From a virus (Duplodnaviria; Heunggongvirae; Uroviricota; Caudoviricetes), in the IMG/VR virus record IMGVR_UViG_3300020060_000009: a stretch of 64,000 nt of DNA; one strand, given 5' to 3'. Position 1 is the stretch's first letter. Every line of letters begins with the position of its first letter. The notes under the pieces are model-generated. The model did not search any database and had not been told where the DNA came from. It worked only from the letters and a program-made list of their open reading frames with translations. The translations under genes were made by a program, and so were the position numbers. Shown piece after piece: positions 8,484 to 40,931 of this stretch.

Positions 8484-8537
8484 ACTACTATTGTACGAGC
8501 TTGTGGTTAAAAAAGCAATACCTTTTTTAGATTTTCG

Positions 8538-9335
8538 TTAAACTAATCCCCATCGTGCAAGCTGTTCAAAACCTCCGAGGTGTTCTATATATTGTCTAGC
8601 AATCCCCACTATTTCCGAGTATTCCTTGCCATCAATCTTCTCGTCACCAATTGCACAATGAAGTTCAACAACTTCACCTGTCTCTTGCGCTTTAAGATGT
8701 GCATAAATATTCACAGCTACATCCGCTTTAGATAAGTCTTTACCGTGTAGACCACCACCCGTAACAGCTTCACCCATATCAGAGCCTAGTTTGCGATTTG
8801 TAGCACCAGTGTCGGCATCTAGCCCACCTGTCCAATAACCGAGTGGGTTAATGACAAGATCATGCTTATACAGCTTAGACAAAAATTCGTTTAAAACAAA
8901 TGTAGAAGCATAAGACTGACAAACGATTAACCTATTGCCAGCTAAAATATACTTACCATCTGTTGGGAAATTATCGTAGATTGTTTTAGCAATATCAGAT
9001 AAATCAGAAATATCTTTTTTAATAGGGACACCCTTAAAGATACCATTATCTCCAGCACGAGTTTCATCCTCTTGGTTCTTAGCTAACTCTACATCTTGAG
9101 GAACCTCAATATATTCAACTGTCAGATTACCAGCAATACGATTAACTATATCTTTGACAATCCAAGTGTCAATATTCACCGATGTCTCGCCAATGATATA
9201 CACCTTACCATGTCCAATGAGAACCTCGAATGCGCATCTTGGTTCATCCTCTATCTCATAAGCATAATCAACTAATGCGCCAGCAATACGATCTGCAACT
9301 TTATCTGGGTGTGATGGGTTTACTTTTTCTATCAT
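8538..9335 (-). CDS. metK: compact S-adenosylmethionine synthetase (MetK/MAT-like, ~266 aa)
   Basis: PSHPDKVADRIAGALVD matches the MetK N-terminal SEGHPDKxxDQISDAxLD motif. RAGDNGIFKG matches GAGDQGLMFG. TGGGLHGKDLSKADVAVNIYAH matches [23 protein letters not shown]. About 100 aa shorter than bacterial MetK. Start taken at the internal Met preceded by an AGGA ribosome-binding site. Confidence 0.7.
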   Translation of the reverse strand: MIEKVNPSHPDKVADRIAGALVDYAYEIEDEPRCAFEVLIGHGKVYIIGETSVNIDTWIVKDIVNRIAGNLTVEYIEVPQDVELAKNQEDETRAGDNGIFKGVPIKKDISDLSDIAKTIYDNFPTDGKYILAGNRLIVCQSYASTFVLNEFLSKLYKHDLVINPLGYWTGGLDADTGATNRKLGSDMGEAVTGGGLHGKDLSKADVAVNIYAHLKAQETGEVVELHCAIGDEKIDGKEYSEIVGIARQYIEHLGGFEQLARWGLV

Positions 9336-9345
9336 ATATTCCTCT

Positions 9346-10248
9346 CTAAAAACTATAATTAGGGTCGCCAAGTTGTGCAACATTTATTCCGTATACATCA
9401 CGAAGCATATTCGCTACTGCTACACGGTCATCGAACCATAAGAGGACATTGTATTTGCCAACAATATATTTCTCTATCATATCTGCTTTGACTAATGTGT
9501 CCTTAACTTGGTTGCCACGTTCATCTACATGTTCACTTCCACGCATATAGAGTTCATCGTATTCAATATCATTCTTCTCTAACCAAGCTTCTGTCTCTGG
9601 GCGACATACTTCATCACGGCCACTAAATATGAATAACTTTGCATGATTGATTAAAGTAACACCATCTAACATATGTGCGACACCTAAGTTGATATCATCG
9701 TTGCCAACTTTGTGCCACTCATAAGGAGAACGGTCTTTTGGGCCTAGCGTAAGAGTGCCGTCTAAGTCTGACACTACTACAAAAGGCAGTTCTGGGTCAT
9801 ATTTCAAGAAGGTGGGTAGCTTTTTAACAAAGCTATGGAACATCCCACGAATTACCTGTTCTCCTACCGAGTTATCTCTTGCTTTGTCACGTTCAATTAG
9901 TTCAGCGAGCGGGACATCGAGGAAATCCTTCTGCTCAACAGTAGCGCTAAATTCTCGCGCGATTGCGGAGAGTCCAGTGACATGTTTTGGATTGAGATTT
10001 GTATCGGAGCTAACAACATTTTTTCCTTGTGAAAGGGATTGACGAATGAGCCTATTTCTTTCTTTGAGAACAATCGACTCATCTCCTCTTTTGTGATTAT
10101 ATATCCCGTCTCGAAACAGACGTCCATCTCTTCTGATGTCATCTTTTTCAACACGAACCCACCCTTTTTCAACGAGTTCTTTGGCATAAGTGGTCTTTCC
10201 GCTTGCGGGCAACCCGCGCAGAATAAGAACTTTTAGTTTTTTTGTCAT
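9346..10248 (-). CDS. pnk: polynucleotide 5'-kinase/3'-phosphatase (T4 Pnk-like)
   Basis: N-terminal P-loop GLPASGKTT (kinase domain). C-terminal HAD motif VVVSDLDGTL (DxDGT) typical of the T4 Pnkp phosphatase domain. Confidence 0.8.
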   Translation of the reverse strand: MTKKLKVLILRGLPASGKTTYAKELVEKGWVRVEKDDIRRDGRLFRDGIYNHKRGDESIVLKERNRLIRQSLSQGKNVVSSDTNLNPKHVTGLSAIAREFSATVEQKDFLDVPLAELIERDKARDNSVGEQVIRGMFHSFVKKLPTFLKYDPELPFVVVSDLDGTLTLGPKDRSPYEWHKVGNDDINLGVAHMLDGVTLINHAKLFIFSGRDEVCRPETEAWLEKNDIEYDELYMRGSEHVDERGNQVKDTLVKADMIEKYIVGKYNVLLWFDDRVAVANMLRDVYGINVAQLGDPNYSF

Positions 10249-10254
10249 TTTTGT

Positions 10255-11538
10255 TTATACTTTTCCTTCTTCTTCCATGTCTAGAGTTCCCTCTGCCATG
10301 TTTTGGTTATCGTAACCCACGAAGGTAGCGCTCTTAGCTTTAAGAGTAAAGGGAGCAATTCCTTCTGCGCGGATTACCACGCCCTCATCACAAGGGCTAT
10401 CTTTATCTAGTGGGACAGCTCCTGGGAAGCCATCTTCTTTGTAACGGTGCATTTCTTCATGTCCAGCAAAGTCAATCCAGTCTTCTGGTTTAAACTCTTT
10501 GTACTTACCGCGCCATAGTAGTGGGACTACTTTCAGTTCACGGTCACGACAGAACTCTGCGATCTGGTCATAAGTCAGGTCGGCAACAACACCCTCTGGG
10601 TTAATCATTCCTACACGGTAAACGTATAAGTCTGCAACTCCCTGTGGAATCTGGTATGTGTACTTGCTCTGTAGTGGAGCACCCTCTGCTGTCCAGCCAA
10701 TAAGCTCACCATAGACCAAGTAGCCCTGTGGAATTTTGCCCATAAGCTTCTCACCTTCTGTGGACCAGATATCTGTGTCATAGAAGTGAACGTGGCTTGG
10801 ATTATTCTTGTCCTTAATAACACGGCGTGAACCGTAAACGTAGTCATACTCTTTTTCTTGGACAACTGCACCAATCTTCTTGGCAACTTTGTCCTTCCAT
10901 GTCATCTTGCGCTGCACGATAGTATTTGCAATACGAATAGATGTTCCGTGTAGTTTCTGTGTAACAGTAACATCTGCATTTTCAGGAATAACATGTGAGT
11001 TTTTGAAGTAGTTATCTGTGTCATAATGCTGTGGCAAGAACTTCTCATCAACACGGCTAAAGATTTTCTTGTTCTTCTCTAGTATTGTTTGTGCGCGAGT
11101 TGCCTTACGAATAAACTTCTTACAAATTTCATGGTCGCCAATGCGGTCAAACGTATCACCCTCAACGAATAATGAAGTATCTAACTTCTTAATGTAAGAG
11201 AGCGCACTTAGCTTGACCACAAGGGCATCCGAGCGATGACCACGCAGTTTAAGAGAGCGGATGTGTCGGTTATCTTCAAGATATCCAGACTCAGCCTGAT
11301 TCTCGTTCTTATCGTTGTGACGGTATAAGTTATTCTTGTAAGCAAATTCCTCTGAAAGCTGCGTACCTGCGGTAAATACCAATGCGAGGTCTCCGTAGTC
11401 AGAGGTCTTTGCTACAAGTGCTTGGCTTCCCAAAACTTGAAGTCCTACAAGGTTGTCTAAACCTTCTAGAGCCACAGGCTTTGGCAAGCGCACTATCACA
11501 CCTGCGTAGTCACTGTTTTCTGGTTCTAATAGTTTCAT
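10255..11538 (-). CDS. rnl: RNA ligase (Rnl2-like nucleotidyltransferase)
   Basis: Motif I QKLHGTSIR matches the KxHGxN covalent nucleotidyltransferase motif of T4 Rnl2-type ligases. Adjacent to pnk, the classic tRNA-repair pair. Confidence 0.65.
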   Translation of the reverse strand: MKLLEPENSDYAGVIVRLPKPVALEGLDNLVGLQVLGSQALVAKTSDYGDLALVFTAGTQLSEEFAYKNNLYRHNDKNENQAESGYLEDNRHIRSLKLRGHRSDALVVKLSALSYIKKLDTSLFVEGDTFDRIGDHEICKKFIRKATRAQTILEKNKKIFSRVDEKFLPQHYDTDNYFKNSHVIPENADVTVTQKLHGTSIRIANTIVQRKMTWKDKVAKKIGAVVQEKEYDYVYGSRRVIKDKNNPSHVHFYDTDIWSTEGEKLMGKIPQGYLVYGELIGWTAEGAPLQSKYTYQIPQGVADLYVYRVGMINPEGVVADLTYDQIAEFCRDRELKVVPLLWRGKYKEFKPEDWIDFAGHEEMHRYKEDGFPGAVPLDKDSPCDEGVVIRAEGIAPFTLKAKSATFVGYDNQNMAEGTLDMEEEGKV

Positions 11539-13265: not shown

Positions 13266-13419
13266 CCTTGATTTTTTCTCTAGACTCGATTATTAAATCA
13301 ATAATCTTATTATTTTCGTCAACAGAAACTTGAGCTATTTCGTTACGTTGAAACAGAGAACGACTTTCCCCATCTACCATGTAAAAAGCATCTGTAGTCA
13401 TGTAACTACGCAAGGTCAT
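13177..13419 (-). CDS. hypothetical small protein
   Basis: 80-aa ORF. Confidence 0.3.
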   Translation of the reverse strand: MTLRSYMTTDAFYMVDGESRSLFQRNEIAQVSVDENNKIIDLIIESREKIKGDAEEGARRYNEYQEQKLIKEQDENISSR

Positions 13420-14440
13420 TGATCAGTTTCTCCCATTTTCCCTCAAGCTCATAATTAGAGAACTCTTCGTACCCTATATTATATGCTATCTTCTTCTCTG
13501 CTTGCAAGTCCTTTTTTGCTAAAAAGTCTAATCTCTGCCCTAAAGTAGCGTGGTTAACAGTGTAAAGATCAATTAAAGTTCTCGTCATAAACTTACCTGT
13601 TTCCGTAGCGGGGGTTAACCAATGTTGAGGTAATATTTTATCATTGGGCGAAATATCGGTCATAAGAACGGGCATTCCGGCACAGAGCGCTTCTGTCATT
13701 GGCAAACATTGTCCACCGTATCGTCTAGGAAGAATCATGGCATCAAAATCACGATACAATTCCACTTCATTTTCTGGACTTGATGTGTCAATTGTAATTC
13801 TTGGATCGTTATAAGTATTTACAACACCACCAACTTGTGTCTTAATTACTAATTCAAAGTCTTCACCACTATAGCGCATAGCTCTAATGAGGTCTTCTGT
13901 CCCATTACGATCATTTACTGCTTGTCTCCCCATGATATGCAAGAAGCGTTTTCTGCCCGTGCGTTTTAGGTTATGTTCTCTGACTTCTTTAAAGTCATCA
14001 ACAAACACAGGCGTGGGGAGATATTCGACACTGCCCCATAATGAACGTGCATCTGCTAAATGCCATCTACTAGGAGAAATAAGTTTATCGGGTAAAGTTA
14101 GTTCAGGTTGACGAAGATAATCAGCGAACTCCCAGTTGTATTGGTTGATTGTTTTGACTCCCATATGCTTTGCAAGGTCTACAAATCTAGTATTGTAAAA
14201 AATCTCACAAGTGATAACAATATCTATACCGCGAAGCCACTCTATAACCTGCTGGTTAGTCGGGAATCCGTTTATCTCCGTGACACTATATGTAGCATAG
14301 GTATCTGGATATTGTTTATTGCCGTTAAAAAATGAGCTGTTAATAAGCATAATCTCGTCTGGGCGAATCATCCGTGCTAAGTTGCGAGTCTGATTGCCCA
14401 AGCCAGTTCTATCACTTCGTGCTATTAGTCCAATTCTCAT
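13406..14440 (-). CDS. putative glycosyltransferase (GT-B like)
   Basis: 344 aa with a Rossmann-like N-terminus and an E-x7-E-like C-terminal region. Weak assignment; sits in a glycosylation cluster. Confidence 0.45.
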   Translation of the reverse strand: MRIGLIARSDRTGLGNQTRNLARMIRPDEIMLINSSFFNGNKQYPDTYATYSVTEINGFPTNQQVIEWLRGIDIVITCEIFYNTRFVDLAKHMGVKTINQYNWEFADYLRQPELTLPDKLISPSRWHLADARSLWGSVEYLPTPVFVDDFKEVREHNLKRTGRKRFLHIMGRQAVNDRNGTEDLIRAMRYSGEDFELVIKTQVGGVVNTYNDPRITIDTSSPENEVELYRDFDAMILPRRYGGQCLPMTEALCAGMPVLMTDISPNDKILPQHWLTPATETGKFMTRTLIDLYTVNHATLGQRLDFLAKKDLQAEKKIAYNIGYEEFSNYELEGKWEKLINDLA

Positions 14441-16388: not shown

Positions 16389-17939
16389 TCATATCTTTTC
16401 CATCCAGAATCTAATATTATGGTTTTCCAACTCCTCACTTTTTACACTAAACTTACATTTACTATAAAAACCAGTTGTCTTTCCGTAGTGCTTTGTCGGG
16501 TCAAAGAAGTCCATAGACTGAATATCAAACCCTCTTACATGTGTCGGGTCAATCCATAAGAACTCTGCTTTCCAGCCTGGAGTCTGTATATACAATATCC
16601 CACCTGGCTTCAAAATACGATGACATTCTTCCAGAAACTTAATAACGCCATGATCTTCGCCGATATAAGGAGGAAGATGCTCAATAACATCAACTGCTTT
16701 GATCTCGCTAGCAGAATTGTCTTCAAATGGATAAGGAAATTTCATCAAATTATGGACAACATCTATGTTCGGCAAGTCGATCATATCCACATTAATCCAA
16801 CCCGGAAATGCGTCTTCACCTGCCCCTAAGTTTATTCTTAAATCTGGCTTAATTTCTATTGCTGTTGAATCTTTATCAATTGGTTTAATAGGTGACAATG
16901 GTTTGCCTTTCATTTCTTGTGTTGCTGTTATTGTTGTCGCTTTGTCAGAAACCTCAAAAACGTCGCCTGTGTGGGACTTTGGATCACCAAACGCCCCTTC
17001 GTCGTCTAAAGTATCTAAGAGGGCTTGTAGGCGCTTAGAATACGTCTGAGAGGACTTTACGAACTCGTGTCCTGCCTTGCGAATTGCTTCACGCTCTTCA
17101 TCATGCTCTAAATAGTAATTTATCTTCTCATCAAGCTCTTCAAAATTTCCGTATTCATAAAAGACTGCATTTACATTTTCTTGAAAAAGATCAGCCACAC
17201 CTTCAATCCGAGGATATATAGTGAAAGCACCGCGACCAATACTTTCAAAGAGACGATCTGACGTATAGTTTTTGTGTTTGAATCCAATATTGACAGAGTC
17301 ACCAACAGCGATTTTAGAGTTTGCATAAAGTTGATTAAGCTCTGTACCCCTGACTGTTCGTTGTGGATGTCCAAACTTTTTATATCTTTCTCCATACTTA
17401 TCCTCCAAATGTTTTACTAACTCGTAACGATAAGCCCATTCTTTGTGGCCGTATTCTGCACCTCCACCAACAAAGATGACATCTCCGCTTAATGAAGCAT
17501 CATTGTTTGGAGGGAGCATGATACACTCTTGTTCAAACACGCCGGGAAGAAGCCAGTAATGATTAATTCCTTTACTGTCGAAGAAAGCTTGTGATTCAGG
17601 ATCGCCATCTGCACTAAATACATATTCAGTTCTCCAAAACGGATCGCTCTCAATACCAGATTGTCTAGAAAGGCCAACATAAAGATCAAGGTGATAAGAA
17701 GCTGTTGGAATACCTCGCTCCTTTAATATCGCAAGATCAGCAAGTGTTACCATTTTGCCCCAAGTACGTGTATATAGAAATAGATCGGTGTCCTCTGGCA
17801 CTCTTTGAAGCCAAGATGGGTCATGATGAGCAAGTTCTTGGATGCGAACAACTTCATGACCCATGCTCTCAAGGGTCTTAGCGATATGGTTTTCTGTAGT
17901 GAAGTCTACACTATAATTTCCAACGTATGTTATTTTCAT
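16389..17939 (-). CDS. bifunctional glycosyltransferase / SAM-dependent methyltransferase (predicted)
   Basis: 516 aa. N-terminal 300 aa are GT-like. C-terminal VDVIEHLPP...ILKPGGILYIQTP is a Methyltransf_11/23 signature. Confidence 0.55.
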   Translation of the reverse strand: MKITYVGNYSVDFTTENHIAKTLESMGHEVVRIQELAHHDPSWLQRVPEDTDLFLYTRTWGKMVTLADLAILKERGIPTASYHLDLYVGLSRQSGIESDPFWRTEYVFSADGDPESQAFFDSKGINHYWLLPGVFEQECIMLPPNNDASLSGDVIFVGGGAEYGHKEWAYRYELVKHLEDKYGERYKKFGHPQRTVRGTELNQLYANSKIAVGDSVNIGFKHKNYTSDRLFESIGRGAFTIYPRIEGVADLFQENVNAVFYEYGNFEELDEKINYYLEHDEEREAIRKAGHEFVKSSQTYSKRLQALLDTLDDEGAFGDPKSHTGDVFEVSDKATTITATQEMKGKPLSPIKPIDKDSTAIEIKPDLRINLGAGEDAFPGWINVDMIDLPNIDVVHNLMKFPYPFEDNSASEIKAVDVIEHLPPYIGEDHGVIKFLEECHRILKPGGILYIQTPGWKAEFLWIDPTHVRGFDIQSMDFFDPTKHYGKTTGFYSKCKFSVKSEELENHNIRFWMEKI

Positions 17940-22677: not shown

Positions 22678-23319
22678 ATGGAAACAAAAATAGGAATATA
22701 TCAAATAAAAAGAGATGGCACGGTCTTGTACATTGGTCAGTCTAGAAACATAAAAAATAGATGGCTCCAACATAAATATGAACTTAAAAGAAATAAACAT
22801 TGCAATACTTATCTACAATGAATGTACAATAAATATAACGACTTAGAGTTTTCAGTTTTAGAAGATAATATACCCGTCGAAGGGTTGACACCAAAAGAGA
22901 TATTTTATATCAACAAGCTAAAACCTCTTTGTAATATTGCTATACCGAACGGAGACGACAGCTGGACATACACGGAAGATAGAAACAGAAAAGTATCTGT
23001 AGGCAATCTTGGAAAGAAAAAGTCCGCAGAACATGCTCTGCATATAAGTGAAGCAAGAAAAGGTATGAAGCTATCCTATCCCGTGTGGAACAAGGGCAAT
23101 GGTGAATATATGTCGGGAGAAAAAAACTCTTTTTATGGCAAACATCACACACTAGAAGACAGGAAAAGAATATCTGAAACTAAGTCGAAAAGTAAAGTGG
23201 ACATTAAAAAGTTAATTCAATTCAGAAATAGCGGGATGAGCTATGCTGCCGTAGGGAGAGTACTTGGTGTCTCAAGAACCTTTGTAAACAGAAAATATAA
23301 ATTATGGACGGAAAAATAA
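22678..23319 (+). pseudogene. GIY-YIG homing endonuclease interrupted by an in-frame TGA (22819-22821)
   Basis: ATG at 22678 opens ...GIYQIKRDGTVLYIGQSRNIKNRWLQHKYELKRNKHCNTYLQ, then TGA. In the same frame the next ORF continues MYNKYNDLEFSVLE...NKLKPLCN, the rest of the GIY-YIG domain. NUMOD3-like repeats and a C-terminal HTH follow. The frame was checked as (22822-22678) mod 3 = 0. Confidence 0.6.
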
Positions 23320-23718: not shown

Positions 23719-24180
23719 ATGAGCGTACTAAGAGATTTTCACGAACAGCATTTACATATCGTAAAGAGATATTGGCCTCGTGAAATTTTTAATCCATTTA
23801 ACTGGATAAGAACTATCAAGTGGCGACATCAACGAGCAGAGAGAGGATGGAGTGATAGAGATACCTGGGGCGGAGGAGAATATATTGCAGGAATAAGTGC
23901 AGGAATCCTTAACTACCTACAAAGCGAAAAGGGCCATGTTGATTGGGATGAATATTTTAATTTTAATTATCCCGAGAATCTCGGATATACATCTCTCAAT
24001 GAAGTTGCACAGGATATTGATAATTATTTAGCATGGGAAGAAGATTCTTTTAGTGACCCTATATATTCTATGTTAAAAGATGAGAATGAAACTCGATGGG
24101 CAATTGAATTTCAACTTTATGAAGATTATAGAAACGCAATGCACTTTGTTGCCGAAAATATAGGACAACTTTGGGACTAA
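23719..24180 (+). CDS. hypothetical protein
   Basis: 153-aa Trp-rich ORF. Confidence 0.45.
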   Translation: MSVLRDFHEQHLHIVKRYWPREIFNPFNWIRTIKWRHQRAERGWSDRDTWGGGEYIAGISAGILNYLQSEKGHVDWDEYFNFNYPENLGYTSLNEVAQDIDNYLAWEEDSFSDPIYSMLKDENETRWAIEFQLYEDYRNAMHFVAENIGQLWD

Positions 24181-24207
24181 AAAAGAGTTAGTTTCCTAAC
24201 TCTTTAA
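24181..24207 (+). terminator. rho-independent terminator
   Basis: aaagagttag-tttc-ctaactcttt hairpin followed by an AT/T-rich tail, directly after the stop of 23719..24180. Confidence 0.55.
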
Positions 24208-24492
24208 TAATTTCATGACCAGCGATTGACATAACCGAGTTAACGGCAGTCTGCTTTGATATCTTCCCCTGCTGGCCATACACAGTTACGAAGTGCAACT
24301 TATATTTGGAAGACTCTCTTACAGACCTCTGTGTCTATTATACTATTTTGCGGAAACGTCCGTCAGTGGAAACGGCTGATAGAATCCTTATACCATCCTG
24401 CGCGAGGAGCCACTATAACCTGCCAATTCAGGCAGCTAGGAAGTCGGTTTAATCTTCTAAGCCTTGCCCTTATTCTTTATCAAATTAAAATA

Positions 24493-24844
24493 TGGTGGAG
24501 ATGGGGGGAATCGCACCCCCGTGCCAAAAATCCACAATTAGCTTTCTATTACAAGTTTATCCAGTTTCTACTGGCAAAAGACAGTGTGACACCACCACTT
24601 ATTTTTATAGTTCAAATAAGAAACTTGTGCATTGCGTTCGGTATGCTCGTAGTCTTCATTATTGGCCGAAGACCGCCATTCTCTCGATTAAACCAGTGAG
24701 AAAGCTGGTGCTGGAACAAATGCTTGTTTAAACATTGCTACAGCGGATTTGAATGCGTTTGCATTTAGGTTTTGTTGTCTTTGACGCGGACAGGCGACTT
24801 GCTTACTAACTGTTAAAAATTCAAGGTCGAATCTAAGTCATCCC
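24493..24844 (-). ncRNA. ssrA: tmRNA (ssrA), phage-encoded
   Basis: 5' end GGGGATGACTTAGATTCGAC (E. coli has GGGGCUGAUUCUGGAUUCGAC). 3' end GGGGGTGCGATTCCCCCCATCTCCACCA, i.e. T-arm plus an acceptor that pairs with the 5' GGGGATG, plus CCA. About 352 nt. A candidate tag ORF ANAFKSAVAMFKQAFVPAPAFSLV* is only tentative. The overlapping ORFs 24256..24699 and 24492..24731 are therefore spurious. Confidence 0.75.
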
Positions 24845-24887
24845 CATAAATCTATTATACACCAGAGGTAAAATAATTGCAACATAA

Positions 24888-27933: not shown

Positions 27934-28006
27934 TGGCTCCCTCGCTAGGACTCGCACCCAGATAACAGCCTTCAAAGGGCTGCGTCCTACTTTAGACGAC
28001 GTGGGA
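27934..28006 (-). tRNA. tRNA-Gln (anticodon UUG)
   Basis: Anticodon stem CAGCC/GGCTG with loop CTTTGAA. T-arm CTGGG-TGCGAGT-CCTAG. CCA encoded. Confidence 0.6.
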
Positions 28007-28011
28007 ATATT

Positions 28012-28098
28012 TGGCGGTGACAGTAGGATTCGAACCTACGGGGCTTTTGGCCCACAGCTTTAGCAAAGCTGCTCGATAAACCACTCTGACATATCACC
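28012..28098 (-). tRNA. tRNA-Ser (anticodon GCU), type II
   Basis: T-loop GGTTCGAATCC, long variable arm, anticodon loop TTGCTAA. CCA encoded. Confidence 0.65.
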
Positions 28099-28103
28099 GT
28101 ATT

Positions 28104-28180
28104 TGGCTGGAAAGGTAGGGGTCGAACCTACGAATTTTCTGGTTCAGAGCCAGGTGCCTTGCCTACTTGGCCACTTTCCA
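28104..28180 (-). tRNA. tRNA-Gln (anticodon CUG)
   Basis: Anticodon loop CTCTGAA flanked by CTGG/CCAG. T-loop GGTTCGACCCC. CCA encoded. Confidence 0.6.
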
Positions 28181-28621
28181 TTATTTAAATAAGTTATTAG
28201 CGACTACTACAATAATTGATATTATCGCAACTGCTGCTGCAATCGCACCGTATATTCTACCTACTGTTAGCTGGGAGCCTTTAGCCTTACCATCAGATAT
28301 ATTAATTCTGTCTGTAAGATCGCTTAACTTGCCTTCTAATGCTTTATGCTGAACAGTATATTCCTGCCTTGGCATTAAAGTACTAGATTGGTCTGCTAGT
28401 TGAGCTCTGAACTCATTAACGCTCTCAAATCGTTTCTCAGTAGAAACTTCTGCTTTATTAATAGCTTCTTTTGTTGCAGCTAAAGCAGCAGCTACTGCTT
28501 TCTCTTGCGATACAAGCGCAGCATCTATAGCTTTTTGATTATCTTCAAACCGTTGAGCGACATACTCTTTTAGAGTATCTACTGTCCAACCACTTTCATT
28601 TTTTTGTGTTTCACCTGACAT
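28181..28621 (-). CDS. coiled-coil protein with C-terminal membrane anchor
   Basis: 146 aa with a long Ala/Glu/Lys-rich helical region, then GAIAAAVAIISIIVVV TM. Embedded in the tRNA array. Confidence 0.45.
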   Translation of the reverse strand: MSGETQKNESGWTVDTLKEYVAQRFEDNQKAIDAALVSQEKAVAAALAATKEAINKAEVSTEKRFESVNEFRAQLADQSSTLMPRQEYTVQHKALEGKLSDLTDRINISDGKAKGSQLTVGRIYGAIAAAVAIISIIVVVANNLFK

Positions 28622-28651
28622 ATATACTCTAAGTATATAGGAAAGCTAATT

Positions 28652-28730
28652 TGGGGTGTAGAACGAGAATCGGACTCGCATCTCCTCCTTCACAGGGAGG
28701 CGCTTGCAACCAGTAAGCTACCTACAACAT
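28652..28730 (-). tRNA. tRNA-His (anticodon GUG)
   Basis: Anticodon stem CCTCC/GGAGG with loop CTGTGAA. Extra 5' G(-1) opposite C73, typical of tRNA-His. T-loop TCCGATT. Confidence 0.55.
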
Positions 28731-28733
28731 ATA

Positions 28734-28826
<93 letters not shown>

Positions 28827-28845
28827 TTTGGTGTGCCAGGTGGGA

Positions 28846-29241
28846 CTAATAACCAGTTTTTAAGTAAATTTCTCTACGTTTTTCTGGTGTATAAGCCTTT
28901 CTTCGACACGCTGATTTTGCGTCTCGGCAAGGCTGGCAATGACAACCTCTGTTGTACATTCCAATCTGACCATGATCTGCTAATATTTTCCTTGATGCTG
29001 CGACATTACAAGGCAGGTGGCTATAACCTATATTCTCCAAGTCAAAAAATAATTTGATTGGGTCTTCGCTATCTAACCAAGGTTCCATATGCTCTATAGA
29101 AAATGTTTCTCTATCTAGTGGCTTTTTACACCTGTAGCATACATGACCAGCTTTAACGGCAAAGTCGAATAATAAGTCTTTTAACAGCCGACCATTAGCT
29201 GTGCTAGGATTCATTCCTAGCTGTTCTTTCTTTTTGTCCAT
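28846..29241 (-). CDS. HNH homing endonuclease
   Basis: CYRCKKP...HMEP...N...H motif with flanking Cys pairs (CHCQPC). Lies between tRNA genes. Confidence 0.65.
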   Translation of the reverse strand: MDKKKEQLGMNPSTANGRLLKDLLFDFAVKAGHVCYRCKKPLDRETFSIEHMEPWLDSEDPIKLFFDLENIGYSHLPCNVAASRKILADHGQIGMYNRGCHCQPCRDAKSACRRKAYTPEKRREIYLKTGY

Positions 29242-29319
29242 AACAATCCTCGGATGTTTATTTTGGTTATTAATTTAATTATAACCTTTTCCGATTCTTG
29301 TCAAGGAAATGGTGGCCTC

Positions 29320-29396
29320 AGATGGACTCGAACCATCAGTCCCGAAGGATGGGAGGTTTAAGCTCCCTGCGTGAACCGTTTCGCCATGAAGCCATA
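29320..29396 (-). tRNA. tRNA-Leu (anticodon UAA), type II
   Basis: Anticodon stem GGGAG/CTCCC with plus-strand loop gtttaag. Long variable arm. CCA encoded. Confidence 0.6.
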
Positions 29397-29483
29397 TGGT
29401 GGGTCGTGAGAGACTCGAACTCTCAAGCCCTTGCGGGCAATAGGTTCTAAACCTATCGTGTATACCATTCCACCAACAACCCG
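29397..29483 (-). tRNA. tRNA-Leu (anticodon UAG), type II
   Basis: Acceptor GGGTTGT/ACGACCC. Anticodon stem ATAGG/CCTAT with loop TTTAGAA. Variable arm GCCCGCAAGGGC. T-loop TTCGAGT. Confidence 0.6.
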
Positions 29484-29572
29484 TGTGGTGCGCTTAGCTG
29501 GACTCGAACCAGCATGAGCTCTCGCTCGGACGCTTTTGAAGCGCCTGGGTCTACCTCTTCCCCCATAAACAC
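29484..29572 (-). tRNA. tRNA-Leu (anticodon CAA), type II
   Basis: Anticodon stem GGCGC/GCGTC with loop TTCAAAA. Variable arm GAGCGAGAGCTC. D-loop AGGTAGAC. Confidence 0.55.
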
Positions 29573-29624
29573 ATGTTTGTTAAAGACTCTTGACCATTTT
29601 ACCTGGCATATTTTCTCTTTCTTT

Positions 29625-29698
29625 TGGAGCGCCATACTGGAATCTAACCAGTTTAAACCGCTTTGCAGGCGGACGCGTGGACATTCCGCCAATGACGC
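29625..29698 (-). tRNA. tRNA-Cys (anticodon GCA)
   Basis: Acceptor GCGTCAT/ATGGCGC. Anticodon loop CTGCAAA. T-loop TTAGATT. Confidence 0.6.
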
Positions 29699-29782
29699 AT
29701 ATTTTATCTTGATTCCTCCGCTTATCCTTTAGGGATAGCTTGCTGATGTTTCATTGGGCGCAAGACGCGCGGAAGTTATTTT

Positions 29783-29860
29783 GGTGGCATCGGAAGGTTT
29801 CGCGCCCTCGACCCCCTGTGCTTCAAACAGGTGCTCTAACTATCTGAGCTACAATGCCAT
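29783..29860 (-). tRNA. tRNA-Phe (anticodon GAA) with atypical T-loop
   Basis: Acceptor GGCATTG/CGATGCC. Anticodon stem CCTGT/ACAGG with loop TTGAAGC. T-loop reads CGCGAAA instead of the canonical TTCGAAT. Confidence 0.5.
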
Positions 29861-29865
29861 AATTT

Positions 29866-29942
29866 GGTCGGGATAGTAGGAGTCGAACCTACCGCTTGAG
29901 ACGTCCAAGGTCCCCGTCACGCCTCGCAACTTCACCCCGATA
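29866..29942 (-). tRNA. tRNA-Pro (anticodon UGG)
   Basis: Anticodon stem GGGAC/GTCTC with loop CTTGGAC. T-arm GTAGGTTCGACTCCTAC. Confidence 0.55.
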
Positions 29943-29944
29943 TT

Positions 29945-30030
29945 TATTTGAACTTAGTCGAGATCGTCGGACTTGGACCGACATCGCCAGTCCCCGTGAC
30001 TGGTGTTCTTCTTAAACTATCTCTCGTTAT
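29945..30030 (-). tRNA. tRNA-like element, probable pseudo-tRNA
   Basis: T-arm-like GTCGG-TCCAAGT-CCGAC and a 5-bp anticodon-like stem CCAGT/ACTGG with loop CACGGGG (no U33). No encoded CCA, and two acceptor mismatches. Confidence 0.3.
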
Positions 30031-30031
30031 T

Positions 30032-30108
30032 TGGCTCCCAGTGTTGGAATCGAACCAACCGCCTTGACGTTAACAGCGTCCTGCACTACCGATGTGCTGA
30101 CTGGGAAT
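30032..30108 (-). tRNA. tRNA-Asn (anticodon GUU)
   Basis: Plus-strand T-arm gttggaatcgaaccaac and anticodon stem gacg/cgtc with loop ttaacag. Confidence 0.6.
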
Positions 30109-30204
30109 ATTTAGACACCCCGTGGAACTTGACATCCACATCTTCATCTATGTTACTTTGCTAGCGTTCACATAGGGTTGTTTTCTTTAAACTATGGGGC
30201 ATAT

Positions 30205-30282
30205 TTGGCGGACTGTACGAGACTCGGACTCGTTTCATCTCCGTGACAGGGAGACGTGTTACCCATATACTAACAATCCATA
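30205..30282 (-). tRNA. tRNA-Asp (anticodon GUC)
   Basis: Acceptor GGATTGT/ACAGTCC. Anticodon stem TCTCC/GGAGA with loop CTGTCAC. Confidence 0.6.
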
Positions 30283-30285
30283 TTT

Positions 30286-30362
30286 GGCAGGGAATGTAAG
30301 AATCTAACTCACGCCAAGAGGTTTGGAAGCTCTTGTGCTAACATTACACCAATCCCCTATAT
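30286..30362 (-). tRNA. tRNA-Trp (anticodon CCA)
   Basis: Anticodon loop TTCCAAA. T-loop GTTAGATTC. Acceptor AGGGGAT/ATTCCCT. A C-C mismatch closes the anticodon stem. Confidence 0.5.
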
Positions 30363-30363
30363 T

Positions 30364-30466
30364 TGGTGGAGGACTTTTCGTGGTATCCCCCGTTGAATGT
30401 GACATTTACAGTACACAAGGAACTGTAAACCGTTACTGTCTAGAACAGCACCAAAGTCCGAAGACT
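30364..30466 (-). ncRNA. tRNA-like structured RNA with 3' CCACCA
   Basis: 5' GGACTTT pairs with 3' AAAGTCC-T-CCACCA. Internal 8-bp hairpin TTTACAGT...ACTGTAAA with a 9-nt loop. About 100 nt, no canonical T-arm. Confidence 0.3.
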
Positions 30467-30829
30467 TTATATACATAACCTCGCAGACGGCTAGCTAATC
30501 CAACGTCTGTGACACATTGCAGCCATAGCCTGCTGTGCCTACATGTACATGACCACTCGCTACCCATCCCAGTTTCAGCACGATCAGGGTTTCACTCCCG
30601 CAACCGTCGTACATACTGGGCCAAAGCCTTGTCCGTCGTGTACTTGTATATCTATTATATCTAATTGTTAAATAAAAAGCGACCCTACATTTTTGTGGGT
30701 CGCTCGGAGATATTTTTGTTTTTCTATACTACAGTGAAAAACCTACAGCCCGAGCGCCACTAAAACTATCTGAATTATTCCAGAGTTGCGGTAGTTGATG
30801 CTGACACGATAAGTTCTTCATACTTTTAA

Positions 30830-30872
30830 TTATACACCATTATGAAAATAAACACAAGCGTTTTATTTAGTT
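30830..30872 (-). promoter_or_regulatory. conserved phage promoter on the minus strand driving tRNA array 1
   Basis: Reverse complement reads cgcTTGTGTttattttcataatggtgTATAATtaaaag (TTGTGT-N17-TATAAT), oriented towards the tRNA genes at 30466 down to 27934. Confidence 0.55.
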
Positions 30873-31070
30873 TTGTGCTTTTTCAGCTTCATCTGCTCCT
30901 GCTGATGTCTCTTCATTCGCGTAAACAGAACATAATAACGTGTAAAATAGAAGTATTTTTTCATCTGTTAAAAAGTAAAGTGCAATAGCAACAGGATAAT
31001 TCGCTCGCCAGAACCATTTTTTATAGAAGTGTTCTCTCTTCTGATATTTCTTATAAAATTTTCTAAACAT
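30867..31070 (-). CDS. small membrane protein (questionable)
   Basis: 67-aa ORF with one hydrophobic segment; its 3' end overlaps the promoter element. Confidence 0.25.
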   Translation of the reverse strand: MFRKFYKKYQKREHFYKKWFWRANYPVAIALYFLTDEKILLFYTLLCSVYANEETSAGADEAEKAQN

Positions 31071-31163
31071 GTTTATAGTATACTTGGTCGAGCCAGCGGG
31101 GGATGATCCCGTATCTCCATCTTGAGAGGATGGTGTCCTAACCGATTAGACGAAAGCTCGATA

Positions 31164-31250
31164 TGGTACTGAGGGAGGGATTCGAACCCCCGAAGTCCGA
31201 AGACATCTGGTTTACAGCCAGCTTACTTTAACCACTTGCATACCTCAGCA
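31164..31250 (-). tRNA. tRNA-Tyr (anticodon GUA), type II
   Basis: T-arm GGGGGTTCGAATCCCTCCC, long variable arm. Plus-strand anticodon stem ctgg/ccag with loop tttacag. Confidence 0.6.
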
Positions 31251-31253
31251 TAT

Positions 31254-31327
31254 TTGGTGAACCACGCGAGACTCGAACTCGCTTCTACTCCTTGAAGGGG
31301 AATCGACTTAACCCATGGTCGAGTGGT
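31254..31327 (-). tRNA. tRNA-Glu (anticodon UUC), position 33 = C
   Basis: Acceptor GGACCAC/GTGGTTC. Anticodon stem ATTCC/GGAGT with loop CCTTCAA. T-arm GCGAGTTCGAGTCTCGC. Confidence 0.5.
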
Positions 31328-31486
31328 CCAGATATTAAAAAAATCGCCTATGGGCGACTACAATTTTATGACAAAAGAAGAAGCCCTGTTATAGGTTAGA
31401 TTCTTCCTCGTAATATGTATTACTGTTTATCATATTATCTATTATAGCGTATTCAATTAAATAACACAATAGCTAAAATAAAGCTT

Positions 31487-33578: not shown

Positions 33579-34613
33579 ATGTCAAAAGTAGAAAACATTA
33601 TTAACCACATTGTATTAGTGCTTGATGCGTCAGATTCAATGACACATCTTGCAAAGGATGTAATCAAAGTAGCAGATAACCAGATTGAGTATTTGGCTCG
33701 TCGCTCTAAAGAACTCGACCAAGAAACTCGCGTTACTGTCTATTCGTTTAATACTACTTATACTCAACCTAGCAGTTATCGCTACAGCCACACTCCACAA
33801 ATTGAATGCCTTGTCTATGACAAAGACGTTCTTCGTGTGCCAAGTATTGCTGAAGTGTACAAGACTGATGGTGCTACTCCACTTATTGACGCTACTATAC
33901 TAGCTCTTGATGATTTAGCTCTTACCCCAGAGAAATATGGCGAACACTCATTCCTCGTCTACGTTCTTACCGATGGCGAGGAGAATGTCTCTAGCGCTAC
34001 TCCAGCATCTTTGAGCGCTCGTATAAATAACTTACCTGATAACTGGACACTGGCTACATTCGTACCTAACCAGGTCGGTGTTATGGAAGCAAAGCGTTTC
34101 GGGTTCCCTAAAGACAATATCGCCGTTTGGGATGCTACTAGCACCGCTGGTGTTCAAGAGATGGGTAAGCAAATCCGTGAAACTACAGAACGCTTTATGC
34201 AAGCTCGTTCTACTGGTAGCCGTGGAATCCGTAATCTATTTGCACTTGAAGACGTTAAGAGTGCTGACCTTTCTAAACTTACTGCTCTCCACTTTGGTCA
34301 GTTCCGCTTATTCGATGTTACTGAAAAGCAGCGTATTGATGAATTTGTAGAAGGTACTACAGGACGTGCCTATAAATTGGGCGAAGCTTATTACCAACTC
34401 TCTAAACCAGAGATTATCCAACCGCAAAAACAAGTTGCAATTCTTAATAAGAAAGGTCTGTTCATCGGTGACGAGGCTCGTACTATCCTTGGTCTTGGTG
34501 ATGAACATGTAAAGGTTGGCCCAAACCACAACCCTGACTACACAATCTTTATTCAAAGTACAAGTAATAACCGTAACCTAATGCCAAACACTAAACTGTT
34601 GATCTTGAGTTAA
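33579..34613 (+). CDS. von Willebrand factor A (vWA) domain protein
   Basis: MIDAS motif LVLDASDSM, plus a downstream Thr and an Asp (LTDGEEN) at canonical spacing. Confidence 0.65.
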   Translation: MSKVENIINHIVLVLDASDSMTHLAKDVIKVADNQIEYLARRSKELDQETRVTVYSFNTTYTQPSSYRYSHTPQIECLVYDKDVLRVPSIAEVYKTDGATPLIDATILALDDLALTPEKYGEHSFLVYVLTDGEENVSSATPASLSARINNLPDNWTLATFVPNQVGVMEAKRFGFPKDNIAVWDATSTAGVQEMGKQIRETTERFMQARSTGSRGIRNLFALEDVKSADLSKLTALHFGQFRLFDVTEKQRIDEFVEGTTGRAYKLGEAYYQLSKPEIIQPQKQVAILNKKGLFIGDEARTILGLGDEHVKVGPNHNPDYTIFIQSTSNNRNLMPNTKLLILS

Positions 34614-38873: not shown

Positions 38874-38951
38874 TGGTGGGTCTTCTGGGGATCGAACCCA
38901 GGACATTCTGCTTAAGAGGCAGATGCTCTAACCTGCTGAGCTAAAGACCCA
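38874..38951 (-). tRNA. tRNA-Lys (anticodon CUU)
   Basis: T-arm ctggggatcgaacccag. Plus-strand anticodon stem ctgc/gcag with loop ttaagag. Confidence 0.6.
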
Positions 38952-39237
38952 TATGTTTGCAAACACCTACTGTCCTAGTCGTTATTCCGCAGTTTACACA
39001 ATAAATGCGAATGAGTTTAAAAACTCGAGCTGGCATAAAAACTGCTATCATTTCATTGCAACAAAAGCAACGTGGACGGCCGTATTCGTTAAGGTATTTA
39101 TCTATGAACTCGTGATTTAGTAATCCAGCTCTTAAATGCTGTCGCACTGGTAAATCATTTGTTCTCTTTTTTATATCCATGTATTTATTATATATGGTGG
39201 AGTCGCAGGTAGTCGAAACCTGATATCTATCGTGCAA
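38941..39237 (-). CDS. hypothetical Cys-rich protein
   Basis: 98 aa; CFCC...CVNCG. Its 3' end abuts or overlaps tRNA-Lys. Confidence 0.3.
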   Translation of the reverse strand: MHDRYQVSTTCDSTIYNKYMDIKKRTNDLPVRQHLRAGLLNHEFIDKYLNEYGRPRCFCCNEMIAVFMPARVFKLIRIYCVNCGITTRTVGVCKHMGL

Positions 39238-39270
39238 GGATAGTGTAATAGCCGTTATACGACGACCCCA
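39195..39270 (-). tRNA. tRNA-Ala (anticodon UGC)
   Basis: Acceptor GGGGTCG/CGACTCC. Anticodon stem CTATC/GATAG with loop CTTGCAC. T-loop TTTCGACT. Confidence 0.55.
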
Positions 39271-39352
39271 TAAATGAAATGTACTAAGGGAAGTTTTCGT
39301 ATAACTTACAACGAGGCAATTCCTGCTGAGTTTGACCCCTTAATCATACTTA

Positions 39353-39430
39353 ATTGTCGCATAGCAGGATTTGAACCTGCGCCATGAACCCCTAAAATGG
39401 GGCTGCTCTACCGCTGAGCTATATGCGACA
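39353..39430 (-). tRNA. tRNA-Lys-like (anticodon UUU), no encoded CCA
   Basis: 8-bp acceptor GTCGCATA/TATGCGAC. T-arm GCAGGTTCAAATCCTGC. Anticodon region CCCC-ATTTTA-GGGG with an imperfect stem. The 3' end is followed by AATT, not CCA. Confidence 0.45.
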
Positions 39431-39434
39431 TATT

Positions 39435-39512
39435 TGGTGACTCACGAAGGATTCAAACCTTCAACCTTCACGTTCGTAGCGTGATGCTCTATTCGATTAA
39501 GCTAGCGAGCCA
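39435..39512 (-). tRNA. tRNA-Arg (anticodon ACG)
   Basis: T-arm gaaggattcaaaccttc. Plus-strand anticodon stem cacg/cgtg with loop ttcgtag. Confidence 0.6.
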
Positions 39513-39742
39513 TATAGTGCCAAGTTACTGATTACAGACAGAACTTGGGCTGTAAGAAACTGGAGCTAGACGGTGCTACCCCGTCAATGGCATTACTAGT
39601 AAGTCCATTTACATTCCATTTGCCCATATTTGGTGGACTGAGTTTATAGTCATCTGCCCGTAACGACTAAACAGTTTAACGACATATTCAGGTCAATTAT
39701 TTCTTGGTTGCGGAGCTGGGTAATGCTCCCAGTGTCTCCTCC

Positions 39743-40105
39743 TTATGAGAGAGGCGAGATAACTTTTTCTCCACTCCGCAGTATTTGTGCTTTGCCAAAG
39801 GTTTTTATATCTACGGTTAGCGTCTTAATAACATGGCAATTTGCACAGAGCATTTGTAGATTATCCTTTGTTATTTTACCTCTATACAGTTTTCGCCAAG
39901 TCTGATCACCACCAAAATCTTCTTTATTTTTTCTAAGTAGGGGCTTTATATGATCTATTTGAAATGCCAATATATTTTCACAGTAACCACATTTAGCGCA
40001 TCTGTTATTAAACATCTCTGATACTTTTTCTCGTATCATCAATTGTTCTTTTTGTTTCCAAAGACGTTCATATTCACGCTGTTTGTTTTTATCTTTATAT
40101 GGCAT
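39743..40105 (-). CDS. HNH endonuclease
   Basis: CAKCGYC...IDHIKP...N...LCANCH, the HNH core with zinc-coordinating Cys pairs. Inside the tRNA array. Confidence 0.7.
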   Translation of the reverse strand: MPYKDKNKQREYERLWKQKEQLMIREKVSEMFNNRCAKCGYCENILAFQIDHIKPLLRKNKEDFGGDQTWRKLYRGKITKDNLQMLCANCHVIKTLTVDIKTFGKAQILRSGEKVISPLS

Positions 40106-40150
40106 AATCTTATTTAATTATAACCTTTTTGTGTTTTGTCAATGTACGTT

Positions 40151-40226
40151 TGGTGGTTCATCAAGGAATCGGACCTTGTGCACTCGGTATGTAACACCGA
40201 TGCTCTACCAATGAGCTAATGAACCA
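40151..40226 (-). tRNA. tRNA-Val (anticodon UAC)
   Basis: T-arm caaggaatcggaccttg. Plus-strand anticodon stem tcggt/accga with loop atgtaac. Confidence 0.6.
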
Positions 40227-40320
40227 TATGGACTTTTTGATTAACTTCTGTGTCCAAAGAAGCCGAGGCGATTTTACTCTTTATTTTCTGTTCGCGCGAA
40301 CATATACCTCTGGGAGCATT

Positions 40321-40396
40321 TGGTCGTGCCAGAAGGGGTTGAACCTTCTTCGTCAAGATATAAGCTTGATGCTCTAACCGTTGAGCTATGGCACAG
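40321..40396 (-). tRNA. tRNA-Ile (anticodon UAU)
   Basis: T-arm agaaggggttgaaccttct. Plus-strand anticodon stem tcaag/cttga with loop atataag (codon AUA). Confidence 0.55.
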
Positions 40397-40401
40397 TATT
40401 T

Positions 40402-40472
40402 TGGTAGCCACGCTGGGAATTGAACCCAGTATTAAGGTTTAGAACGCCTGTTACTTATCCTAAGACGTAGCC
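40402..40472 (-). tRNA. short tRNA-like gene with defective anticodon arm
   Basis: 71 nt. Acceptor GGCTACG/CGTGGCT and T-arm CTGGGTTCAATTCCCAG are good, but the anticodon region has only a 3-bp AGG/CCT stem around CGTTCTAAA. Possible anticodons UCU or CUA cannot be decided. Confidence 0.35.
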
Positions 40473-40608
40473 GTATTTGATTCACCACTAGCAGAGTCGA
40501 TACAAACGCACAAAAGGTACAATTTTCCAATGCTCTCGTCGCTGCATACAGGTTACTCCTTATCCTGCGTGGGTCGCCGTTTTTTCGTGTGAATCTTGGT
40601 CGTGGTGC

Positions 40609-40684
40609 AGGGATTCGAACCCTGACGATCTGATTGGAAGTCAGACATGCTAATCCGTTAAACATCACATCACGATAATTTCAC
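40609..40684 (-). tRNA. tRNA-Gly (anticodon UCC)
   Basis: T-arm cagggattcgaaccctg. Plus-strand anticodon stem ctga/tcag with loop ttggaag. Confidence 0.6.
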
Positions 40685-40761
40685 GAGCTAGTCCATGTCA
40701 TGCTGGATACTATCAATGCCACTTCATGCAAAGTTGGGCGCTCTCATTACTAAATTGTTAA

Positions 40762-40857
40762 ATTGGAGTCTTTAACGGAATTGAACCGTTCTACTCGGAG
40801 CCTACCTAGGATGGCCAGCCGAGTGTGCTACCGTTACACTAATGCGACATATATGGA
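40762..40857 (-). tRNA. aberrant ~96-nt tRNA-like element
   Basis: Good 5' half (GTCGCAT-TA-GTGT-AACGGTA-GCAC) and T-arm AACGGTTCAATTCCGTT plus CCA, but the 3' acceptor AAAGACT does not pair with the 5' end. The anticodon region CTCGG...CCGAG encloses about 20 nt. Confidence 0.3.
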
Positions 40858-40930
40858 GCCGACTTTCGGACTTGAACCGAACACCTGGTACTTACAAGAT
40901 ACCTGCTCTACCTGATGAGCTAAATCGGCA
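40854..40930 (-). tRNA. tRNA-Thr (anticodon UGU)
   Basis: Acceptor GCCGATT/AGTCGGC. Anticodon stem GGTAT/GTACC with loop CTTGTAA. T-arm TTCGGTTCAAGTCCGAA. Confidence 0.55.
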
Positions 40931-40931
40931 C

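Follow-up and report, generated by a model that had tools for sequence, protein, structure and literature searches.

Does a phage of an uncultured group encode its own transfer-messenger RNA (tmRNA), and what would such an RNA do in the infected cell? The question was raised by the IMG/VR virus record IMGVR_UViG_3300020060_000009 (Duplodnaviria; Heunggongvirae; Uroviricota; Caudoviricetes). The whole stretch of DNA analyzed, 64,000 nucleotides, is referred to here as the window. A first-pass annotation, made from the sequence alone, had predicted a minus-strand tmRNA gene (ssrA) at positions 24493 to 24844. Our data identify minus-strand positions 24493 to 24845 as a full-length, one-piece tmRNA gene of 353 nt in which the CCA end is encoded. 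The gene lies inside the phage genome, with phage genes on both sides. Judging from its sequence, its most likely function is ordinary trans-translation that relies on host factors and supports phage protein synthesis, and we give this reading a probability of about 0.7.

A full-length tmRNA gene on the minus strand

In a covariance-model search, the Rfam tmRNA family RF00023 covered the gene end to end (model positions 1 to 374) and scored 86.3 bits (gathering score, 47; E value, 4.5e-32). The 5' end of the minus strand reads GGGGATGACTTAGATTCGAC, with its first G at 24845, and the 3' end reads GGGGGTGCGATTCCCCCCATCTCCACCA. The complementary acceptor halves and encoded CCA of the initial prediction are present as described, and its 3' border stands; its 5' border fell one base short. 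As shown in Table 1, the two ends fold into a tRNA-like domain. The acceptor stem (GGGGAUG/CAUCUCC) forms 7 bp, including the alanine identity element G3:U70, and is followed by the discriminator A and CCA, while the T arm has a 5-bp stem (GGGGG/CCCCC) and a 7-nt loop (UGCGAUU). This fold was recovered in 12 of 12 members of the clade described below, i.e., the window copy and 11 relatives. Helix 2 is long and interrupted. The minimum free energy (MFE) fold of the 353 nt was more stable than 100 of 100 dinucleotide shuffles (z = −2.3).

Two open reading frames (ORFs) predicted on the plus strand, at 24256 to 24699 and 24492 to 24731, overlap the gene. They had been dismissed as artefacts at first pass, rightly, given that gene callers left the gap empty in L006, L010, and L013. 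L007 has a single gene call in the gap, without a Pfam match.

Conservation of the locus and of the RNA structure

A related-locus query of IMG/VR with the neighboring gene for a 153-amino-acid (aa) protein returned none; a protein search with its product gave relatives instead, yielding 38 homologues at 39 to 100% identity. The contigs of nine homologues share the order DnaB, RusA, 153-aa gene, ORF-free gap, and LemA, and each of the nine gaps holds a tmRNA on the opposite strand. Their Rfam scores were 87 bits (L021), 83.4 (L008), 68 (L010), 62.2 (L019), 61.4 (L020), 51 (L013), 49.9 (L015), 48.3 (L017), and 39.1 (L011; E value, 1.7e-12). Two further members, added from IMG/VR via a degenerate tag-end pattern, scored 72 bits (L047) and 53.1 bits (L042). 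In each of the 11 related contigs the tmRNA is flanked by the 153-aa gene and LemA, and 10 of the 11 RNAs reach the gathering score. The 12 contigs are independent and come from different samples, with contigs of 81 to 99 kb among them, and the clade tmRNAs are 44 to 75% identical to the window copy.

Mini-constructs composed of the tRNA-like domain and helix 2, made for every clade member but L042 and L047, were folded independently, and 10 of 10 adopted the same architecture. Covariation was measured in all 12 members on equal-length constructs of the acceptor stem, the distal 6 bp of helix 2, and the T stem; it was limited to these three helices because a full-length MAFFT alignment was unreliable in the region of pseudoknots 2 to 4 (PK2 to PK4). 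In this alignment, which was fitted to the structure and so leans toward it, standard pairs occupied 99.5% of cells, compared to 88.5% in column shuffles and 43 to 52% (about 47%) with slid partners. Pairs changed on both sides numbered 6 of 18, and acceptor pairs 4 and 5 and the distal helix 2 pairs covary. The covariation score was 0.351 versus 0.115, a level reached by none of 500 shuffles. The result is still robust, given the slid-partner control and six T-stem variants.

G3:U70 was invariant in 12/12 members while adjacent pairs varied, and the discriminator A and CCA were likewise present in all. Outside the three helices, the stems of pseudoknot 1 (PK1) covary in L011, L015, L019, and L020 (CGCU/AGCG and ACGU/ACGU; UGUUC/GGACA and UGCUC/GGGCA). 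Helix 5 shows compensatory variants in relatives (UUCGC/GCGAA, UUCGC/GCGAG, and ACGC/GCGU), and its loop keeps the stop codon of the tag in 12/12 members. The 3' domain contains hairpins that are equivalent but differ in sequence among relatives (AGCCUUU/AAAGGCU, CUUGCC/GGCAAG, and CUUCAU/AUGAAG). Compensation in the stems, together with a tag frame that stays open across the relatives, indicates that the gene is under selection, and we take it to be functional.

A conserved tag reading frame without an LAA end

The candidate tag proposed at first pass, ANAFKSAVAMFKQAFVPAPAFSLV followed by a stop, was said to have an atypical C terminus, and both points hold. The frame starts at the GCA that Rfam aligns with the consensus resume codon, at the end of an A-rich linker (UAAAU followed by GCA), and the tag has 24 residues and ends in FSLV. 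In Escherichia coli, A86 sets the tag frame, with the resume codon four nt after this A (PMC2481249). An A at −4 and a GCA resume codon were found in 12/12 members, which matches the A86 rule.

The tag frame was open in all 12 members, over 20 to 32 codons, and stops occurred in 22 of 24 alternative frames. Differences in tag length among members amount to whole codons. In a close group, changes were most frequent at third codon positions (52/38/80 for the three positions). Nine of the 12 tags end in PA(F/Y)(A/S)LV and the other three in AFATA, LAFTA, and SYATA; none ends in LAA. In the tag of the window copy, Ser replaces Ala through a G-to-U change on the 5' strand of helix 5. CCA and CUG of the tag-end motif can pair as CCAG/CUGG, without variation at synonymous sites, and part of the tag-end conservation may therefore act at the RNA level. 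Net charge was mostly positive across the clade (−1 to +3). Hydrophobic moments of the tags were not significantly above those of shuffles (fractions, 0.04 to 0.55), giving no sign of an amphipathic helix. Taken with the covariance-model score, the phage flanks, the synteny in 11 contigs, and the covariation, conservation of the tag frame upholds the core prediction of a tmRNA.

Departures from the canonical tmRNA

Several observations weigh against an ordinary, working tmRNA. ARAGORN did not back the predicted gene: at default settings it reported 26 tRNAs and no tmRNA, and 12 of 12 clade tmRNAs escaped it at these settings. Eleven of the 12 members, the window copy included, have G at position 55 of the T loop, and only L021 has UUC. 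The PK2-to-PK4 region differs in form among relatives, with a clear H-type PK2 in the window, and Rfam posterior probabilities are low there. The tag lacks an LAA end, which makes the fate of the tagged product uncertain. Finally, SmpB was not found among ORFs of at least 85 aa at 1 to 47 kb of the window or among precomputed Pfam hits in the 10 kb leftward, with 47 to 64 kb screened in part and all but about 25 kb of the roughly 99-kb genome in view; the phage likely depends on host SmpB.

U55 of the T loop is almost universal, and U54-U55-C56 is highly conserved but not defining for tmRNA. The D-loop analogue reads AG in the 11 G55 members, compared with GG in the tmRNA of mycobacteriophage Bxz1; that of E. 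coli also reads GG. We speculate that G55 and the AG form a linked tertiary change. A (Y)ALAA-type C terminus, absent from the window's tag, is typical of tmRNA but does not define it, with Bxz1 as a natural exception. Clear H-type pseudoknots in the window copy are limited to PK1 and PK2, and five relatives have a simple hairpin in place of PK1; pseudoknots of tmRNA are replaceable (PMC2481249).

ARAGORN at the setting -ps80 gave borders that agree with ours. Its placement of the tag, at position 250, is implausible, and we rejected this output as confirmation.

Comparison with known tmRNAs

Knowledge of phage tmRNAs dates back to Bxz1. Eight mycobacteriophages and Bacillus phage G are on record as carriers (PMC4131195), an ARAGORN survey found a tmRNA in 402 of 18,146 phage genomes, about 2.3% (PMC9004378), and in some huge phages tmRNA is reported together with SmpB (PMC7162821). 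A tmRNA in a phage is therefore an already documented phenomenon, of which this is a further case in a lineage absent from GenBank. Four points set it apart: a tag without an LAA end, G55 in the T loop, a PK1 that varies among members, and escape from ARAGORN.

The window tmRNA resembles the bacterial one-piece tmRNA (RF00023; E. coli SsrA as the model) in G3:U70, the CCA end, helix 2, PK1, the A at −4, and the GCA resume codon. It also shares the short tag frame without start codon or Shine-Dalgarno sequence, the stop in the helix 5 loop, and the structured 3' domain. The E. coli RNA is 363 nt long, compared to 353 nt here. Unlike the E. coli RNA, it is phage-borne, and its tag has 24 residues ending in SLV (ALV in relatives) rather than 10 ending in LAA.

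The tmRNA of Bxz1 (cluster C mycobacteriophages) is likewise phage encoded and one-piece, and a large array of tRNAs lies next to it in a genome of at least 100 kb. Its tag according to ARAGORN, ATDTDATVTDAEIEAFFAEEAAALV, is 25 aa long, comparable to the clade tags, and also ends in ALV. On the other hand, the Bxz1 tmRNA has a canonical UUCGAGU T loop, is 435 nt long and high in G+C, and is found by ARAGORN, and its tag is strongly acidic (net charge −7) compared with those of the clade. Bxz1 is listed as a myophage, whereas a long tape measure protein suggests a siphovirus-like tail here. Common ancestry of the two tmRNAs was considered and rejected: nhmmer gave no match, and global identity was 44%, no higher than that between the window copy and L021, the clade member most distant from it. 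Homology between Bxz1 and the clade is not detectable, and the T loop of Bxz1 is canonical; the resemblance of the tag ends is therefore either convergent or due to chance.

Other viral tmRNAs also differ. The Wildcat tag ends in LVAA, and the tmRNAs of Melnitz and the pelagiphages (marine) are circularly permuted two-piece molecules, unlike the one-piece RNA here; as here, Wildcat, Melnitz and the pelagiphages, and the huge phages are lytic phages with a tmRNA beside other translation genes. Permuted tmRNAs in IMG/VR viral contigs end in ALAA or RIAA, so a non-LAA ending is not general in viruses. No tmRNA was found in the first 50 kb of phage 949. A search of 185,579 species genomes with the clade tag-end pattern, which is narrow, gave 14 chance matches, none of them a tmRNA, and no bacterial genome among those searched carried the clade type.

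An exact 28-nt pattern of the T arm and acceptor retrieved five contigs from IMG/VR (L001 to L005), which were rejected as relatives: they carry unrelated, permuted tmRNAs of the beta-proteobacterial type. Over these 28 nt of T arm and acceptor 3' end they match the window tmRNA exactly, and the rest is unrelated. In L001, L003, and L004 the tag is canonical (ANDSNY...LAA or IAA); ARAGORN assigned an atypical tag to L005 and no tmRNA to L002.

Proposed function and alternative explanations

That the phage actively manages stalled ribosomes, as the first-pass annotation had it, is what its gene content would suggest. In ordinary trans-translation, a sigma-70-type promoter of its own would drive the tmRNA, which lies on the opposite strand to the neighboring protein genes, and the host alanyl-tRNA synthetase (AlaRS) would charge it via G3:U70. 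With host SmpB and EF-Tu, it would enter ribosomes stalled on broken or stop-less mRNAs, the stalling arising from host mRNA decay or from host nucleases that act on tRNA and mRNA. Translation would resume at GCA, four nt after the conserved A, and the ribosome would append ANAFKSAVAMFKQAFVPAPAFSLV, meet the UAA stop inside the loop of helix 5, and be freed. The hydrophobic ...(A/S)LV end is most likely still a mark for proteolysis, though probably a less efficient one than ...LAA. The tmRNA, about 28 tRNAs, the peptidyl-tRNA hydrolase PTH2, polynucleotide kinase-phosphatase (PNKP) with RNA ligase, and the CCA-adding enzyme would together keep translation going during infection.

The foremost alternative keeps a working tmRNA and changes the meaning of its tag, which would be no conventional degron: tagged products might go to another protease, turn over slowly and so spare host proteases, or be released undegraded. 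The lack of an LAA end in all 12 tags points this way, as does a C-terminal motif kept across tmRNAs that share only 44 to 75% identity; so do the ALV end of the unrelated 25-aa Bxz1 tag and the failure of the tag-end pattern to match any tmRNA in the species genomes searched. Nonetheless, tags that end in AAV or ASV remain ClpXP-dependent degrons, with slower kinetics (PMC11003136), and a C-terminal Val therefore does not exclude proteolysis. Hydrophobic C termini are the general rule for tmRNA degrons, and other viral tmRNAs are canonical or near it (Wildcat and the permuted IMG/VR molecules). The CCAG/CUGG pairing means that the motif may be conserved partly as RNA, and the amphipathic-helix test was not significant. 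We regard this explanation as possible, though unlikely. Related to it is the doubtful proposal that the clade and the Bxz1-type mycobacteriophages, two nonhomologous lineages, share a distinct phage tag class of 20 to 32 residues ending in ...ALV.

The remaining explanations, a decoy, a relic, or a host gene, are unlikely as a group. A decoy RNA would bind SmpB, AlaRS, or EF-Tu without tagging and so inhibit host trans-translation. A molecule made of the tRNA-like domain only strongly inhibits tmRNA (PMC4131195), and such a role was suggested for the molecule of this kind in mycobacteriophage DS6A; the deviant T loop would also fit. A decoy, however, does not need a full mRNA-like domain, yet the resume context, tag frame, and helix 5 stop are kept in 12/12 members, and we consider this explanation very improbable. 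The atypical T loop, the variable PK2-to-PK4 region, and the lack of recognition by ARAGORN might instead mark a functionless, decaying relic of a captured tmRNA, but compensatory changes in four helices and the upkeep of the tag frame across deep divergence point to purifying selection, so that a relic is more improbable still. Least credible is a gene that is not phage encoded, whether a chimera made in assembly, the ssrA of a host beside an integrated prophage, or a piece of ssrA of the attP type. Prophages commonly integrate at ssrA, and fragments of it are found in them (PMC9004378). However, this gene is complete and has a promoter of its own; phage replication genes lie on one side and LemA and tRNA arrays on the other, in the same arrangement in 12 contigs; its type was seen in no bacterial genome searched; and Pfam scans turned up no integrase family. 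The full-length gene, its promoter, and the lack of an integrase family also ruled out an attP/attL remnant of ssrA, which had been examined as a separate candidate.

Transcription signals and the downstream spacer

The −10 box of the sigma-70-type promoter ends 8 nt ahead of G1, and a TTGAC(N)-17-TATAAT layout is found upstream of most relatives' tmRNAs (Table 1). About 290 nt beyond the CCA end, a terminator-like hairpin abuts the stop codon of the convergent 153-aa gene; from its sequence, it may mark the end of the primary tmRNA transcript.

The ORF-free spacer of about 310 nt that follows the tmRNA and ends in this hairpin (24179 to 24492, minus strand) holds a promoter-like CTGACG-18-TATAAT at 24366 to 24337. 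The tmRNA precursor may carry it as a long 3' trailer, or it may be the site of a separate small RNA of about 150 nt. No Rfam match was found in the spacer, and its conservation is weak, seen in L008.

Phage setting and neighboring genes

To the left of the tmRNA lie genes for a DnaB-type helicase, a homing endonuclease, RusA, and the 153-aa protein; to the right are LemA, an ATP-grasp protein, and a tRNA array. Farther out are the 1,079-aa tape measure protein, tail proteins, an amidase endolysin, RNA ligase, and the CCA-adding enzyme. The tmRNA and the tRNAs are all on the minus strand, and the protein genes that directly flank these RNA genes are on the plus strand.

The same phage was seen in independent assemblies, including a 99,020-bp ENA contig. 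No match was found among GenBank phages at the DNA level (megablast and blastn) or with the tag peptide in tblastn. The DnaB-type helicase is less than 30% identical to any GenBank phage homologue. The best matches of the endolysin, at about 32% identity, are amidases of phages of Gram-positive hosts; this weak similarity and the predicted sigma-70-type promoters are the only hints at the host. A 428-aa ORF at 62710 to 63996 had no match among GenBank phages. One protein of 344 aa (33579 to 34613, plus strand; phrog_26613, E value 7e-113; function not assigned) shares 56% identity with mycobacteriophage Myrna gp18 and with its homologue in Phabba, while the other window proteins searched against GenBank phages were far lower (about 30% for DnaB and the endolysin; none for the 428-aa ORF), which suggests horizontal exchange among large tRNA-rich phages.

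The first-pass annotation set the tmRNA next to a PTH2 hydrolase and a tRNA array. The hydrolase is real but lies 16 kb away, and the array begins 3 kb away. The tRNAs of the two arrays and the minus-strand block at 1312 to 11538 form a toolkit for tRNA repair and translation maintenance. This block, which also includes a protein with an S-adenosylmethionine synthetase N-terminal domain, suggests a defense against tRNA-cutting host nucleases.

TABLE 1 Coordinates of the tmRNA parts, its transcription signals, and translation-related genes in the window
Feature	Position	Strand	Basis or remark
Acceptor stem, 5' strand (GGGGAUG, with G3 of G3:U70)	24839-24845	−	7 bp with 24497-24503
Helix 2, 5' strand (RNA 20-49)	24797-24826	−	Pairs with 24524-24557 (RNA 289-322)
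Pseudoknot 1 (RNA 50-70): S1 CGC/GCG, S2 UGUC/GACA	24776-24796	−	Read from sequence
Tag frame: resume GCA 24762-24760, 24 codons, stop UAA 24690-24688	24688-24762	−	
Helix 5 (UUUCUC/GAGAGA), stop codon in loop	24680-24703	−	Compensatory changes versus relatives
Pseudoknot 2, candidate: S1 UGGC/GCCA, S2 GUCUUC/GAAGAC	24652-24678	−	Sequence reading; S2 in MFE fold
3' structured domain (PK3/PK4 region): hairpin CUUAUUU/AAAUAAG, GUGGUG motif, hairpin CCAG/CUGG, AUAAAC	24558-24651	−	
Helix 2, 3' strand	24524-24557	−	
T arm	24504-24520	−	
Acceptor stem, 3' strand	24497-24503	−	
ACCA end	24493-24496	−	
Promoter, sigma-70 type: TTGCAA (24882-24877), 17-nt spacer, TATAAT (24859-24854)	24854-24882	−	Consensus scan, 10/12 matches
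Terminator-like 10-bp hairpin, AAAGAGUUAG-GAAA-CUAACUCUUU, plus U run	24179-24205	−	Read from sequence
CCA-adding tRNA nucleotidyltransferase	1312-2319	−	phrog_2244, E 2.7e-59; PF01743 and PF12627 for L053
RlaP-family nucleotidyltransferase	2623-3312	−	
PTH2 peptidyl-tRNA hydrolase	7935-8483	−	PF01981, E 3.1e-14, 53.6 bits; same call for L053
PNKP (T4 type)	9346-10248	−	PF13671 and PF25109 (listed jointly with RNA ligase)
RNA ligase	10255-11538	−	PF13671 and PF25109 (listed jointly with PNKP); phrog_968, E 1e-85
tRNA array 1, 17 tRNAs	27934-31329	−	ARAGORN and Rfam
tRNA array 2, 11 tRNAs	38874-41192	−	ARAGORN and Rfam

Two of the tRNAs (30288 to 30358 and 41121 to 41192) were detected by Rfam only and missed by ARAGORN. 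At 39355 to 39429 (minus strand), ARAGORN reported a "tRNA-???" with a two-base anticodon; its anticodon loop reads AUUUUAG, and it is most simply a tRNA-Lys(UUU). The tRNA-Ile at 40321 to 40395 (minus strand) has the anticodon UAU and could read AUA directly, without lysidine modification.

The homing endonuclease is inserted between DnaB and RusA, and L008, L010, and L013 are without the insertion. Here, a 47-aa ORF with a GIY-YIG N-terminal motif (22678 to 22821, plus strand) is followed in the same frame by a 165-aa NUMOD3 ORF (22822 to 23319, plus strand); the two are split by a single in-frame TGA with an ATG directly after it. The pair is a split, read-through, or pseudogenized homing endonuclease. 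A Tet/JBP-family dioxygenase lies at 11525 to 12388 of L053, just left of the window, and the window itself encodes glycosyltransferases at 13406 to 14440 and 16389 to 17939 (minus strand), one of them as a fusion with a methyltransferase domain. The phage probably has hypermodified DNA.

Implications for phage tmRNA biology

The locus adds a tmRNA lineage that is well supported and deeply conserved; it comes from an uncultured group of phages with genomes of about 85 to 100 kb and no close phage relative in GenBank. It also exposes a blind spot of ARAGORN, on which Pharokka and published phage surveys rely to detect tmRNA: ARAGORN found 0 of the 12 clade tmRNAs, whereas Rfam/Infernal placed 11 of 12 at or above the gathering score. 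ARAGORN-based surveys would miss this whole lineage, and published frequencies of phage tmRNAs, e.g., 2.3%, may be underestimates.

A conserved non-LAA tag, with an ending common to Bxz1, poses a testable question on the fate of phage-rescued proteins. If an ALV-type tag class does exist, rescued polypeptides would meet a fate unlike that of host-tagged ones, such as slower turnover by ClpXP or delivery to a different protease. Ribosomes would then be recycled without overloading the host degradation pathway or relying on it, with G55 in the T loop as a possible linked adaptation. Although a tmRNA is expected biology for a large tRNA-rich phage, its place beside genes for tRNA repair and maturation fits a phage strategy of shielding translation from host attack.

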